Made by a program: the position numbers and the translations under genes
Notes under the pieces: model-generated
The model's database searches: none
What the model was told of the DNA's origin: nothing
Seen by the model: only the letters and a program-made list of their open reading frames with translations
Origin: Pseudomonadota bacterium
Lineage (GTDB): Bacteria > Bdellovibrionota_B > Oligoflexia > Silvanigrellales > Silvanigrellaceae
NCBI GenBank assembly: GCA_039799905.1
Contig: JBDLRP010000027.1
Location: 1-56,040 of the forward strand
Direction: 5' to 3'
Length of the DNA: 56,040 bases
Shown here: piece by piece, positions 12,225 to 29,277 of the stretch
Layout of the letters: each line of letters starts with the position of its first letter
Numbering within the stretch: the first letter of the stretch is position 1

Positions 12225-13550
12225 ATGCATCAAGCCCGCGATGAATCAACGCCCCGCATTGCCAGGCTGCCTGACGGCTTTGGCTTCGGCGGTTTTATTC
12301 CGCGCGCCACGAGCACTCGGGAGAACATTCCCATTGGCGGCTATGTCACCGATAACTATCCTGAAAACATGATGTATCAGGCTCTTGTCGAGTCGATGAA
12401 AGGGGTCGGTCAAACCATTCCCAATCCGGCTGTGGGATGCGTTTTGACACGCAACGGTAAAATCATTTCAGCCGGTTATACAGAGTCATACGGCGGCAGG
12501 CACGCCGAACGCGTTGCCTTCAACAATTTGCAGCAACTTCATGAGGCAAGTGCGGGACTCGACGCGTTCGTCACACTGGAACCTTGCTCACATCACGGCC
12601 GACAGCCACCTTGCTGCGAGCTATTTGAAAACTCAGGGATCAGGTCACTTTACATCGCAATTCCAGACCCCAACCCCTTGGTCGGCGGAAAGGGACTGAC
12701 CGCCGTGGCTGGCAACGTCCAAAATCTCAACGTCGGACTGGCGAAGCATGCCGCAACTGCATGGCACCTTCCTTTTCTCGTTGAACATCGACTCGGTCGG
12801 CCATTGGTTGTCGGCAAATGGGCACAAACTCTCGACGGAGCGTTCGCCGATCAATCCGGCCGATCACAATGGATCACTGGCCCCCTTGCACGCGCCTACG
12901 GCCATTGGCTGAGGCAGAAATATGATGTGACAGTTGTTGGGTTGGGCACTCTTTTGCTTGATCAGCCGTCGCTCTCGGTGCGCGATTGCTGGCGACCAAA
13001 CGAGCGGCAACCCGACGTGTGCATCATCGACGCCTTGGGAGAAGCAACTTGCGAAGATGCGAGACTCAATTCCGGACTTTCAAAAATTTTGCAATCCACT
13101 GCCAGTGCGCGCAAAGTTGCGCTCGTCACAACCGCAGAAAATGCGTCCCAACTCGCAGGCAAACTGCCGGAATCTGTGGCCTTGCTCACGCTCAGCGGCG
13201 ACACTGCTGGCACCGACTCACTGATATCGGCACGCAGGGTTGCCCAATTCTGGACCTCCGACGCGATGCGCACGTGGCTCGATCGATTGCCGCAGAGCAT
13301 ATTTATAGAAGGCGGAGCGACGCTGCTGTCTGGCTTGCTTGAAATTGATGCGTTAGATCTCTTGCACGTTTTCATTGCACCAATGGTGCTGGCCGGAGAA
13401 GCACGGCGTCTCCAACGGCAGGGGCATACAGCTCCGCCCTTGAATAGCGCAACCCATTTTGACGTTCTCTCCACGTTCGCTCTGGGCAATGATATGCTCA
13501 TGGAGCTAATGCCGAGACGCATGAGCGAAACGTTTTTCCGCGAGGACTAA
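12225..13550 (+). CDS. ribD: Bifunctional riboflavin biosynthesis deaminase/reductase RibD
   Basis: PNPAVG, HAE, TLEPCSHHGRQPPC, KWAQTLDG, SQWITG, EGGA; start may be 12369. Confidence 0.93.
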   Translation: MHQARDESTPRIARLPDGFGFGGFIPRATSTRENIPIGGYVTDNYPENMMYQALVESMKGVGQTIPNPAVGCVLTRNGKIISAGYTESYGGRHAERVAFNNLQQLHEASAGLDAFVTLEPCSHHGRQPPCCELFENSGIRSLYIAIPDPNPLVGGKGLTAVAGNVQNLNVGLAKHAATAWHLPFLVEHRLGRPLVVGKWAQTLDGAFADQSGRSQWITGPLARAYGHWLRQKYDVTVVGLGTLLLDQPSLSVRDCWRPNERQPDVCIIDALGEATCEDARLNSGLSKILQSTASARKVALVTTAENASQLAGKLPESVALLTLSGDTAGTDSLISARRVAQFWTSDAMRTWLDRLPQSIFIEGGATLLSGLLEIDALDLLHVFIAPMVLAGEARRLQRQGHTAPPLNSATHFDVLSTFALGNDMLMELMPRRMSETFFRED

Positions 13551-13558
13551 ACAGACAC

Positions 13559-14602
13559 ATGTCGGACATCACGCCTTCAAGCGATTTATCCCAGCCAGCA
13601 GGTGCACCGCCCGCTGTGCCCGAGATTGCGCCATCGGCAGTGTTTCGCGCCGACAAACTCACGCCGCTCTTGTTGCGATTCCTCAACCGCCTCAAACAAA
13701 CAGGAAAATCCGTACACACCATTTCTGCGTACCGGAATGATCTCTCGATTTTCTGCCAATTCCTCATGGCAGAAAAAATTGACCCGCGAGATTTTCAATC
13801 GCAGTTTCAGGAGCGCTGGACTCATTACTTGAACCAGCATGGAAGGAAATCTGCTGCGAGTGTGCGACGGGCACTGATGAGCTCGCGCACGTTTTTGCAC
13901 TTTCTCATCAAAGAAAAAGTAATCGAGCGATCTCCACTTCTGGAGGCAAAATCGCCGCGGCAACCAAACCACGATCTCCTAACGGTGAAGCCTGAGCATT
14001 ATTTTAAATTAACCCACTTTCTCTCTGCAGCCGAGCGGGCAGCAGATCCGAAAGCAGTGCGCGATCTTGCACTCATCCAGCTGCTCGGCGAGTGCGGACT
14101 GAAGGCAAGCGAAGCTGCGCAGGCAAAATGGTGCGACATACTGTTCGAAGGAACACCCGAGTCGGAAACAGCAAGCGTTTCGATTCGTATCGCCGGACAA
14201 AATGAACGGGTGGTCAAAGCAGACGGTCATCTCGCAGCGACACTCGCAAAACTCAAAAACGCCAGACTTTCTCTCTCTTTGACTGCAGAGCCACAAGACA
14301 AATTGTTTTACGGTTTTCTCAACGTGAGCCGGCGTTTGAAGTCGGGTGGATTGCACCGTCACGGAGTCAAGTTCGTGATTTACGAAATTTGCGAAGAAGT
14401 ACTCGGCATACCCTACAATTCTGAAAGTCTGCGCAACCACGCAATACTGCGGTGGCTGGACCTGGGTCTTGGAACGCAGCAAGTCGCTACTCTGGCAGGA
14501 TATTCATCTCTCAACTCACTCGAACGCTTCCGCGCCAAGGCCAACAGCCAGCGTCGTCCGCAGCGCCGATCAAAAAGATCTCAACCCGAAGGACAGGCAT
14601 AG
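13559..14602 (+). CDS. XerC/D-fold tyrosine recombinase homolog, predicted catalytically inactive
   Basis: Core-binding domain (SVHTISAYRNDL, SVRRALMSSRTFLHFL) and RDLAL box; catalytic positions read GLKASE, ESLRN, LAGYSSLNSLERF. Confidence 0.88.
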   Translation: MSDITPSSDLSQPAGAPPAVPEIAPSAVFRADKLTPLLLRFLNRLKQTGKSVHTISAYRNDLSIFCQFLMAEKIDPRDFQSQFQERWTHYLNQHGRKSAASVRRALMSSRTFLHFLIKEKVIERSPLLEAKSPRQPNHDLLTVKPEHYFKLTHFLSAAERAADPKAVRDLALIQLLGECGLKASEAAQAKWCDILFEGTPESETASVSIRIAGQNERVVKADGHLAATLAKLKNARLSLSLTAEPQDKLFYGFLNVSRRLKSGGLHRHGVKFVIYEICEEVLGIPYNSESLRNHAILRWLDLGLGTQQVATLAGYSSLNSLERFRAKANSQRRPQRRSKRSQPEGQA

Positions 14603-14604
14603 AT

Positions 14605-15516
14605 ATGATGCAGCAAGTCATCGGACAATGTGAAATCCTTGAGCTGGTCGGATCAGGCGGACTTGGTGAGGTCTACAGGGCAAAACATCTGAAAACTGGC
14701 AATATCGTTGCTCTGAAGCGATTGCACGACAAGTATCAGAACAATCCAAAACTCCTTGGCCTCTTCCACAAAGAAATCCTCATGCACTCCCAGGTGTCGC
14801 ACAAGCATTGTGTGAAATTCTTTGAAGCAGACCTGACTCCACCCAATGCGCATATTGTGACGGAATTCATTGAAGGACTGAATTGTCATTACCTGCTGAA
14901 GAAAGTCGGCCCGCTTCCTCCGCTGATTGCCTGCTCCATCACACTGGATCTTCTCCAGGGACTCGACCACATCCACTGCCTCGATCTGGTTCACTCCGAT
15001 CTCACACCGGCTAATATTTTGCTGGAAGTGACTGGCAGAACAGTTCTGGCCGACTTTGGCCTGAGCTGCAATCAGGAGGTCGAAGATTACGAGGGCATGA
15101 CGGTCGGCACTCCGGGTTATCAGGCTCCCGAGCGGTTGCAGCACCAACCTATGACGCCACTTGCCGATATATATAACGCCGGCATCATTTTGCACGAACT
15201 GCTGACCGGTGATCGGATCTTCCCCAATCCCGACAGCAAAGATGTCATGGCCCGCATGAAGAATCTTCCGAACAAGATTCACTCAAGCGGCGACACGATG
15301 GTTGACGACTACATCTACAAGATGCTCAAGACAGCACTGCATCTGAATCCACAAAAGAGATTCCCTTCTGCACGGGAGTTTATGTTCGCGCTCTATCAGG
15401 TTCTCAAAGCATATGACATCCGCTATACGAGACGTGCAATTCTTCAGTGGATGGCTGACGTAAAACTCACGAAGCTTGCACCGCAAGAACCGAAACAGAC
15501 TATCTACATCCGCTGA
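14605..15516 (+). CDS. Soluble Hanks-type Ser/Thr protein kinase (non-RD)
   Basis: GSGGLGEVY, VALK, HSDLTPAN, DFG, GTPGYQAPE, DIYNAG; no TM or sensor domain. Confidence 0.92.
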   Translation: MMQQVIGQCEILELVGSGGLGEVYRAKHLKTGNIVALKRLHDKYQNNPKLLGLFHKEILMHSQVSHKHCVKFFEADLTPPNAHIVTEFIEGLNCHYLLKKVGPLPPLIACSITLDLLQGLDHIHCLDLVHSDLTPANILLEVTGRTVLADFGLSCNQEVEDYEGMTVGTPGYQAPERLQHQPMTPLADIYNAGIILHELLTGDRIFPNPDSKDVMARMKNLPNKIHSSGDTMVDDYIYKMLKTALHLNPQKRFPSAREFMFALYQVLKAYDIRYTRRAILQWMADVKLTKLAPQEPKQTIYIR

Positions 15517-26881: not shown

Positions 26882-29277
26882 ATCTGTGTCATTGTTCCGC
26901 GTTCGGACGAAAGCACTTGTCGTGGCTTACCCGCAACATCGCTCGGTCCAACCAATCCGTCCTTGACCATTCTGTCCATCAGCCGTGCAGCTTTGTTGTA
27001 TCCTATGCGGAAATTCCGCTGCAGACTTGAAGTACTCACCGTTCCGGAGGCCACAGCAAAATCAATGGCGCGATCGTAGAGGTCATTCTCATCCATCTGG
27101 GTTCCCTCGACACCCTGCTCGTCAATTTTCCCGCCCGCAGCTCCGTCATTTTTCTGACTGATTTGCTGCGCGTTGCGCTGCACGGCGGCCATTGTTTCGT
27201 TGTCGTATCGGGTCGGATAAAGCTCACGCAGTTTGTCGCTCAATTGATTTATTTCGCGGTCGCCGATGTAAGCCCCATGACCACGAACGATGCGATTGGT
27301 TCCGGGTGGAAGGAAAAGCATATCGCCTTTGCCAAGCAGCCTTTCGGCACCGACGCTTTCAATAATCGTGCGGCTGTCATGCTTCGATGCAACCTGAAAG
27401 GAAATTCGGCAGGGCAAGTTCGCCTTGATAACACCAGTGATGACGTCAACACTCGGCCGCTGCGTTGCAAGAATCAGATGGATTCCGGCCGCACGCGCCT
27501 TTTGCGCCAATCGCTGGATTGAGTCTTCGATGTCGCGCGGGGCGGTCATCATCAGATCGCACAGCTCGTCGATGACAACGACGATGTATGGAAGCGTCTG
27601 TGGAGTTTCGCCGGCCAACTGTTCCACGGTGAGCCTCTGCGCCACAACTTCGGCGTTGAACGCGGCGATGTTCCTGACTGCCGCCCTGCGCATCAGCAGA
27701 TACCGCCGCTCCATTTCATCGATGGCCCATTTCAATGCTCCAGCAGCTTTCGAAGGGTCGGTCACAACCGGCATCATCAGGTGTCCGATGCCGTCATAAT
27801 TAGAGAGCTCCAGCATTTTCGGGTCGACCAAAATGAAGCGGACTTGATCGGGAGAACGGGACATCATCAGACTGAGAAGAGTTACGTTGATGCCAACCGA
27901 CTTTCCTGAACCGGTTGCTCCGGCAATCAAGAGGTGAGGCATCGTGCTTAGGTCAGCAACCAGCGGTGAGCCGTCGACATTTTTACCCAAGGCCATCGGT
28001 AGCGGCGACGAGACATCGCGGAATGTCTGGTGTTCCATGACGTCACGCATTGCAACAGTTTCGCGGATGGGAGCGGGAACCTCGATGCCAATGGTGCTCT
28101 TGCCCGGCTGCGGCGCCATCAACACACTCTGCGCCTTGAGTCCGAGTGCGAGGTCCTCCTGCAGAGACAGAACTTTCGTGACTTTTATACCAGATGCCGG
28201 CTCGAACTCATGCACGTTGACGACAGGTCCCGGTTGACTTCTGACAACTCGCCCCGTCACACCAAATGTTCCGAGCTTCATAGCCAGTAGATGTGCTTGT
28301 GCATCCATACTTTTTTGAATGGAAAGTGAGTCTCCCTGAGCCGACTGCCCCGCCGGCAACAAAGCGAGAAGGCCCTCAAAGACAGGGACAGGCACAGCAT
28401 CAGGCGACAACTTAACAGCTGAACGAGCAGGCATACTCTGTGAAAGCGGCCGCTCTGGAACAATTCTCACCTGTTCGGGTGACTTTACACGCATGGTTAC
28501 TGGTTCATCGGCAACTTGAACCTCTGTCATTCTGTGCTCGATCTCCGGTTCTGCCGGCGAAACGTTCTTCTGGTCCCTCTTCTCTCGGCGCACCGGCGCC
28601 TCATTAACAACAGCGCGCGCCTTCTCGTTGGTTCCGGTATCCGATGCCTCTGCGGCGATCTCCTTGAAGCGGCTCCAAGGAAGTCTGTTGAGCATCCAGA
28701 CAACAGCAGCAACTGGATTGACCCCAAGACATAGCGGCAGACTGGTGAGCAATCCGGCAAACAAAACAATCCTCACTCCAGAAACGCTGAGCACCGGAGT
28801 GAGGCCGCCGACCACTTTCAAACCCAACCAACCCGAAATGGGAAACGAGATTCCAGAGAATGAAATTTCATCGCGAAAGGAAGCGAGCAAACCAAGGAAA
28901 CAAAGCACAAGCTGCGGATAGCCGAACAACCGCAGAGCCCAACGCGCACGCACCCTCGGCCTTTGAAACAATTGGAGGCTGTGCACAAGTGCCACAGCGC
29001 TGAAAACATAGGCTCCCAATCCAAAGAGCTGAATCAGCCACTCCGATATATTTGCACCAAATGAGCCCAACAGATTCCGATAAGAGGCTCCCGAGGCGAC
29101 ACTCGATGTCAGAATCAGATGAAACGACGAGGCATCGCGCGGATTGAATGAGAAGACTGACAAACATATGACAATTGCTGCTGACAGCGCGACGAGCGCA
29201 AAATAGTCACCAACAAACACAGAATTCTTTTTCGAATCCGAATTCCAATCTAAACTGAAGCGAGTCATCGCACCCAC
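26878..29277 (-). CDS. ftsK: DNA translocase FtsK
   Basis: 4-TM N-terminus; MPHLLIAGATGSGKS, VIDE, LAQKARAAGIHLILATQRPSVDVITG; gamma domain LQRNFRIGYNKAARL. Confidence 0.97.
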   Translation of the reverse strand: MGAMTRFSLDWNSDSKKNSVFVGDYFALVALSAAIVICLSVFSFNPRDASSFHLILTSSVASGASYRNLLGSFGANISEWLIQLFGLGAYVFSAVALVHSLQLFQRPRVRARWALRLFGYPQLVLCFLGLLASFRDEISFSGISFPISGWLGLKVVGGLTPVLSVSGVRIVLFAGLLTSLPLCLGVNPVAAVVWMLNRLPWSRFKEIAAEASDTGTNEKARAVVNEAPVRREKRDQKNVSPAEPEIEHRMTEVQVADEPVTMRVKSPEQVRIVPERPLSQSMPARSAVKLSPDAVPVPVFEGLLALLPAGQSAQGDSLSIQKSMDAQAHLLAMKLGTFGVTGRVVRSQPGPVVNVHEFEPASGIKVTKVLSLQEDLALGLKAQSVLMAPQPGKSTIGIEVPAPIRETVAMRDVMEHQTFRDVSSPLPMALGKNVDGSPLVADLSTMPHLLIAGATGSGKSVGINVTLLSLMMSRSPDQVRFILVDPKMLELSNYDGIGHLMMPVVTDPSKAAGALKWAIDEMERRYLLMRRAAVRNIAAFNAEVVAQRLTVEQLAGETPQTLPYIVVVIDELCDLMMTAPRDIEDSIQRLAQKARAAGIHLILATQRPSVDVITGVIKANLPCRISFQVASKHDSRTIIESVGAERLLGKGDMLFLPPGTNRIVRGHGAYIGDREINQLSDKLRELYPTRYDNETMAAVQRNAQQISQKNDGAAGGKIDEQGVEGTQMDENDLYDRAIDFAVASGTVSTSSLQRNFRIGYNKAARLMDRMVKDGLVGPSDVAGKPRQVLSSERGTMTQM

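Follow-up and report, generated by a model that had tools for sequence, protein, structure and literature searches.

A class-wide, catalytically dead XerD-like protein in Oligoflexia and a polar terminus word as its candidate binding site

The gene at 13559..14602 (+) of the window, i.e. the whole 56,040-nt stretch of Silvanigrellaceae DNA analysed here, raises the question of what a tyrosine recombinase that has lost most of its catalytic residues may do in the cell. The gene is present as a single copy in the genome and encodes an intact, catalytically dead XerD-like protein of 347 aa, as judged from the ORF, a domain search and an AlphaFold model. A full-length frame with core-binding and catalytic domains had originally been predicted, and this was confirmed by two Pfam domains, namely the N-terminal core-binding domain (residues 40-120, Phage_int_SAM_1; 13676..13918, +) and the catalytic-fold domain with a remodelled active site (residues 153-328, Phage_integrase; 14015..14542, +), as well as by the fold model (pLDDT 85.3), the best structural matches of which were XerA, Cre and XerH. 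Residues Y58, D61, F65, R103 and R104 of the core-binding domain were invariant in the class alignment. Alignment and model placed a predicted DNA-recognition helix, RHGVKF, at residues 267-272 (14357..14374, +), aligned with XerD R220-Q221 and with R267 opposite R220.

Alignment with Escherichia coli XerC and XerD (NC_000913.3) bore out the claim that five of the six catalytic residues are replaced, the protein reading K-A-E-R-Y-F instead of R-K-H-R-H/W-Y. K182 occupies the Arg I position (14102..14104, +; R148), A212 that of the catalytic Lys (14192..14194, +; K172), in a column that is variable within the family, and E289-x-x-R292 replaces H-x-x-R (14423..14434, +; H240/H244 and R243/R247), with the Arg alone retained. 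Y315 represents the His/Trp III position (14501..14503, +; H266/H270), and F324, with codon TTC, that of the nucleophile (14528..14530, +; Y275/Y279). The basic tail RRPQRRSKR (14552..14578, +), also part of the original prediction, is found in Silvanigrellaceae and was modelled with low confidence and no helix; the region past the Tyr position has a median length of 23 residues in this family, most members of other families having shorter tails (medians of 15 and 9).

A first search returned 94 close relatives with 34-100% identity, several of them named Silvanigrellaceae (lineage Oligoflexia), followed by a gap down to ordinary Xer proteins; K182, E289, R292, Y315 and F324 were present in 94/94 rows of this first alignment. 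A profile matched in 123 of 131 Oligoflexia genomes, and 81 of the 83 good ones carry the gene at E<=1e-12; 40 profile-found loci were retrieved for residue checking. Among the 171 non-redundant family proteins over which residues were counted, 168 retain only the second Arg (five catalytic positions scored), with K182 in 170, E289 in 166 and R292 in all 171. The nucleophile position was shown to be Phe in 98/98 Silvanigrellaceae-type rows and His in 68/71 others, Tyr being found in 3/171, two of which belong to a small family, f3. Position 315 is Tyr in 97/98 Silvanigrellaceae proteins and Leu in 70/71 proteins outside Silvanigrellaceae and f3, and R267-H268-G-x-K271-F272 is nearly invariant across the class. 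Ratios of dN/dS were 0.059 and 0.065 for the two of 28 pairs in which dS was unsaturated, and synonymous codon changes were observed at the replaced residues while the amino acids stay. An RNA-library contig spans 14419-14569 with one differing letter, which, together with the 94/94 alignment rows, excludes sequence error.

Class-wide fixation, low dN/dS and the near-invariant recognition helix support the predicted selection for a non-decaying, non-cleaving protein that would bind DNA; orthologues retaining R-K-H-R-H-Y and a sequence error were both looked for and neither was encountered. A decaying pseudogene or a sequence error, for which the lost residues and nothing else would speak, is vanishingly improbable, given the intact frame, the class-wide presence, a dN/dS of about 0.06 where measurable and the synonymous changes at replaced residues; the 94-row alignment, dN/dS and the residue counts in 171 proteins excluded it. 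That the protein still cleaves DNA, with Y315 or another residue as nucleophile, is very unlikely. The Tyr at 315 in nearly all Silvanigrellaceae proteins and the Tyr kept at the usual position in 3/171 would favour such cleavage, as would the partial activity that Cre keeps with R173K, seen in vivo, and with W315Y; against it, Cre Y324F gives zero recombination and Cre H289E is inactive (PMC2943603), so that the claim of a dead enzyme rests on the Tyr and His II changes. Furthermore, the candidate sites described below are single half-sites, and Leu at position 315 in 70/71 other members rules out Y315 as a class-wide spare nucleophile.

Regarding ancestry, 36 of 38 family members score better on the XerD model than on that for XerC (one tie, one lower), and the dead protein is likely to descend from XerD; in a quick tree, which did not separate XerD from XerC ancestry, the family represents one side of a branch with 99% SH-aLRT. 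On the XerC/XerD models the protein scored 77 bits and the family 75-170 (best 169.9), compared with a cut-off of 329.6, and a canonical XerD over the cut-off was found in 0/86 genomes. A single match was present in 14/86 genomes, and among the matches listed this was the dead gene itself in 12/12. The dead gene is the only PF00589 match in genomes G047, G048 and G049, and these three genomes without any other tyrosine recombinase indicate that no Xer partner is needed; G074 carries two phage-type integrases besides the dead gene. G047, G048 and G049, all of family f15, show neither an active tyrosine recombinase nor an FtsK-gamma match, and two of them are single-contig genomes.

The window's genome, in turn, encodes two Xer-like proteins (L001:1024-2034, L002:910-2028) that are divergent sisters, retain complete catalytic sets and score far below the XerC/XerD cut-offs. 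A dif-like site lies 5 kb from one sister (G000:C25:37328-37348, L146), is conserved in the genus and family, and is located at the terminus in Silvanigrellaceae; its arm reads TTATCA, not TTATGG. The two sisters are probably a replacement resolvase pair in Silvanigrellaceae, and with this pair and site, dimer resolution in the window's genome is seemingly performed by other proteins. The adjacent genes are not part of the system: ribD upstream (12225..13550, +), in a gene order conserved at family level only, and a Ser/Thr kinase gene downstream (14605..15516, +), which is a neighbour in part of Silvanigrellaceae. At non-Silvanigrellaceae loci (L087-L124), the usual arrangement has an unknown ~236-aa gene and a PAS/HAMP histidine kinase gene transcribed divergently from the dead gene, which is followed by a tadA-like deaminase gene. 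An FtsK gamma domain is encoded at 26908-27093 (-) of the window, 12 kb from the gene, a distance that recurs in several congeneric genomes.

The 400 kb opposite dnaA in G049, G074 and G119 were searched de novo for terminus words, every 10-13-mer being scored. The top word common to the antipode regions of G049 and G074 was ACTTACCATAACC, i.e. GGTTATGGTAAGT, which occurs 4 times in the former and 3 times in the latter, where 0.009 and 0.002 copies, respectively, would be expected. Its last 11 bases are identical at 9/11 positions to TTATGTTAAAT, which a table of PMC2731167 gives as the XerD arm of proteobacterial dif sites, and by its letters the word is a solitary, XerD-arm-like half-site of dif. 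Outside Silvanigrellaceae, the exact 13-mer was present in 226 copies in 43/63 genomes, compared with 13 reversed controls (summed by hand). A relaxed word, the pattern of which was defined after variants had been inspected, gave 580 matches versus 191 for the control and was above control in 52/63 genomes and below in 8. The word was at background in the outgroup, where a related pattern gave 33 versus 24 control matches with a maximum of 2 per genome (151 genomes of the phylum Desulfobacterota; summed by hand). The relaxed word had 0 matches in five family-f5 genomes that have the gene (G006, G007, G009, G011 and G012), and in G095 the word was present and the gene undetected, the neighbouring gene being likewise missing from that assembly.

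Site placement is tied to replication geometry. In three single-contig chromosomes (G048, G049 and G074, of which G049 and G074 contributed to the word definition and G048 is independent), 24/25 sites were polar, with minus-strand copies up to the terminus and plus-strand copies beyond it, and 13/25 were within the last tenth of an arm. The word orientation opposes GC skew, and the dif-outer end of the word points to the origin on both arms. In G047, 14/14 sites were polar, two standing alone and the others forming two opposed arrays of six; the arrays flank the terminus (C1:779645-780000 and 912846-913137; L237, L238 and L244), with copies 31-79 bp apart. Site orientation on G001:C8 switches at the skew maximum. 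The innermost opposed sites enclose the GC-skew maximum in G047, G048, G119 and G001:C8; the maximum falls outside them by 12 kb in G074 and 25 kb in G049. Eight of the 14 sites in G074 are spread along the arms, one of them 0.56 Mb from dnaA, and of 10 sites inspected in G049 and G074, 6 fall between genes.

A partner arm was found at 0/29 word sites, and a dif-geometry pattern was at background across 86 genomes, with one candidate, in G001. This innermost G001 site (G001:C8:110758-110778, L256) has the spacing ATAA-6-TTATGG and lies 8 kb from the skew maximum. Proteins of family f3 keep the Tyr in the contexts RQRFY and KQRHY (L085:2974-3879, L086:2983-3873); this family and the G001 site may reflect a transitional state in which a residual dif persists.

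Within Silvanigrellaceae, the exact 13-mer GGTTATGGTAAGT occurs in just 1/23 genomes, and CGGTTATGG is carried instead. In G119, 10/11 copies of CGGTTATGG were located within 1.20-1.52 Mb, all polar. Across seven genomes, 71/75 sites within 350 kb of the switch were polar, with the switch in G118 and G123 taken from the sites themselves and four G125 sites below 1 Mb excluded. The genomes are related and hence not independent, so that p-values are overstated. In four genomes with the switch placed by an independently found dif-like site, 37/40 sites were polar, and the same-genus G108 showed 9/9 polar about its dif-like site. The window's own genome has 17 lagging-strand sites (3.4-6.4 expected) and 1 leading-strand site (5.3-5.8 expected), the latter orientation being mildly depleted (1 versus about 5, p 0.02-0.03); among 12,867 G-rich 9-mers there, none was more strongly biased to the lagging strand than CGGTTATGG, and no single-base variant behaved likewise. 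Clustering is not visible in this genome owing to its fragmented assembly, and the 56,040-nt window has no CGGTTATGG site. Fourteen of the 18 own-genome sites are on the sense strand of ORFs. The total CGGTTATGG count was not above the reversed control in Silvanigrellaceae, the signal residing in position and strand, and in G128, where the gene is absent and SMC is kept, CGGTTATGG was unenriched (3 copies versus 19 controls). The Silvanigrellaceae smc gene is near the terminus and contains one CGGTTATGG copy (G118:C1:1638962, G125:C1:3310152, G122:C1:1213894).

Unloading of SMC by Bacillus XerD is reported to be independent of both catalysis and XerC. The B. subtilis protein unloads Smc-ScpAB at dif-like XDS sites (PMC11840125, PMC11894783, PMC8357415, PMC12322038, PMC8242196, PMC10945525), arrays of which block SMC translocation (PMC11840125, PMC11894783, PMC8357415). 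We consider it an about even chance that the Oligoflexia protein is a non-cutting XerD descendant that binds the terminus word and unloads SMC in the same manner. Binding of the word by the dead protein is quite probable, as suggested by the likeness to the XerD arm, by elimination in G047-G049, by the fact that protein and word change together in Silvanigrellaceae, and by the absence of the word in G128 and the outgroup; if it is bound, an action on SMC is somewhat favoured. The protein would then clamp as a non-cutting monomer on the polar half-dif word near the terminus and unload Smc-ScpAB rings coming from the origin, the Bacillus XerD/XDS unloading function having been retained after dimer resolution was lost, and the strict orientation may reflect the face that SMC or the replisome must meet first. 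ScpA was found in 86/86 genomes and SMC in 27/27 and 5/5 tested, a near universality by which their presence discriminates little, and two parS-like sites are present on own-genome contig C5. The arm-scattered G074 sites fit awkwardly with a pure terminus unloader. Among the three roles originally offered (regulator, architectural factor or Xer/FtsK modulator), architectural factor fits best, and a general role as Xer/FtsK modulator fell away with the three genomes that lack another tyrosine recombinase and the 15 gene-bearing genomes, of two families, in which FtsK-gamma found no match.

The same geometry would also suit a polar fork trap, in which the word-bound protein passes forks from the origin and arrests those overshooting the terminus, like Tus/ter or RTP/ter. 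This would be a third, independently evolved trap, XerD having become a polar clamp and one dif arm a ter site, often after total loss of Xer recombination, and we regard it as a doubtful, if serious, alternative. Tus and RTP are not known to be recombinase-fold proteins. Their sites are non-palindromic and opposed on the two arms around the terminus (PMC6549158), a layout shared by the word (24/25 and 37/40 polar), and a trap would explain the strict polarity, the arrays on both sides of the terminus in G047 and the skew maximum within the innermost opposed pair in four genomes, while depletion of the reverse orientation, as observed in the window's genome, would be a prediction of fork block. 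Conversely, the skew maximum lies 12 kb (G074) and 25 kb (G049) beyond the innermost pair, sites far out on the arms would seldom be met by an overshooting fork, and an Xer-derived trap was not found in the literature searched. It is rather unlikely that the word is bound by another protein, the dead protein having a different DNA target, even though only likeness, elimination and co-occurrence link the two and the gene occurs without the word in five genomes; in Silvanigrellaceae, the active Xer-like pair could bind CGGTTATGG. Such a binder is difficult to reconcile with the 9/11 identity to the proteobacterial XerD arm TTATGTTAAAT, with the persistence of the word in genomes that encode no tyrosine recombinase besides the dead protein, with a word that differs in the one family whose protein has a long branch, or with the TTATCA arm of the Silvanigrellaceae dif.

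An organiser of the terminus acting through FtsK or the division machinery, whose polar sites would guide or stop a translocase or tether the terminus at mid-cell, is improbable. XerD is known to bind FtsK-gamma (PMC5052618), which is present in 70/86 genomes, and strand-biased sites that become denser toward the terminus resemble translocase guides; nevertheless, FtsK-gamma matched in 0/12 f5 and 0/3 f15 genomes, and f15 has the gene and clear polar sites, so that an FtsK role fails where sites persist with FtsK-gamma missing. The XerD E184 contact position is also H224 here, and KOPS words are already polar in the window's genome. There is equally little probability, if not slightly less, that the protein is a transcription regulator acting on operators near promoters, as does MrpR, a repressor of the same fold that no longer functions as a recombinase (PMC10516654). 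The divergent histidine-kinase operon outside Silvanigrellaceae and the 6/10 intergenic sites in G049 and G074 would agree with such a regulator; the sites, however, are arranged by replication geometry and not by gene content, and ORFs contain many of them, on either strand.

SMC unloading at the terminus remains the preferred reading, and a close known counterpart is B. subtilis XerD/XDS, which likewise combines an XerD-type protein, dif-like terminus sites, site arrays and SMC with ScpA. The Oligoflexia protein differs in being catalytically dead in genomes that lack XerC and XerD and, often, any active Xer. Its candidate sites are strictly polar, some along the arms; no statement on the polarity of XDS was found in the literature searched. 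With XerC/XerD (TIGR02224, TIGR02225; PDB 1a0p), it shares the two-domain fold, the spacing of catalytic positions, Arg II, Glu I and the helix-J arginine; it differs in the loss of five of six catalytic residues, in scores under the cut-off, in half-sites rather than dif, and in that no C-terminal helix is predicted past the Tyr position. Of the features that define these recombinases, the fold is present, and the catalytic set, a score at the cut-off and a two-armed dif site are not.

Reuse of a dead recombinase fold is already known from MrpR (PMC10516654) and streptococcal YnbA (PMC1914069). YnbA of streptococci and lactococci (NF002685) is similarly a conserved host protein that lost catalytic residues and the C-terminus in a lineage with another resolvase, although its substitutions and phylum are different, and the available part of PMC1914069 reports no target site. 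The NF002685 profile matched the present protein weakly (E 1.4e-5). A location of ynbA beside scpAB was not borne out, PMC8136486 describing xerD as lost there. MrpR (YopR; PDB 8A0A) shows that the tyrosine-recombinase fold can be reused as a non-cutting, sequence-specific DNA binder; it differs, however, in being an SP-beta phage master repressor with both Arg missing and Lys and Tyr still in place (PMC10516654), whereas the Oligoflexia gene is a chromosomal core gene with candidate sites placed by replication geometry. What is new is a class-wide dead XerD paired with a polar terminus site in genomes often without Xer recombination. Neither this dead-XerD family nor the word was found in the literature searched, and the available part of a tyrosine recombinase classification (PMC8138268) names no such group.

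The arrangement would constitute a natural separation of the two jobs of XerD, with dimer resolution lost and terminus marking retained class-wide. If the preferred reading is true, SMC unloading by XerD would extend beyond Bacillota; otherwise, a new fork trap may be revealed. A candidate target for a dead Xer protein makes the proposal directly testable, e.g. in the cultured Fluviispira multicolorata (Silvanigrellaceae) or in B. subtilis, and the polar terminus-word search is transferable to other dead Xer families. The single-contig genomes without active Xer, and the two families without FtsK-gamma, raise the question of how chromosome dimers are resolved there.

Two minor observations concern repeats. 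At L279 (G001:C114:1962 and 3726), two direct word copies flank a 257-aa frame with a partial XerD-model match at 2306-2992; this may be an element that integrated at a half-site. G049 (L150-L169) also carries several dispersed repeat families with 13-21 copies per 400 kb, e.g. CGCTTCCTAGCTC.
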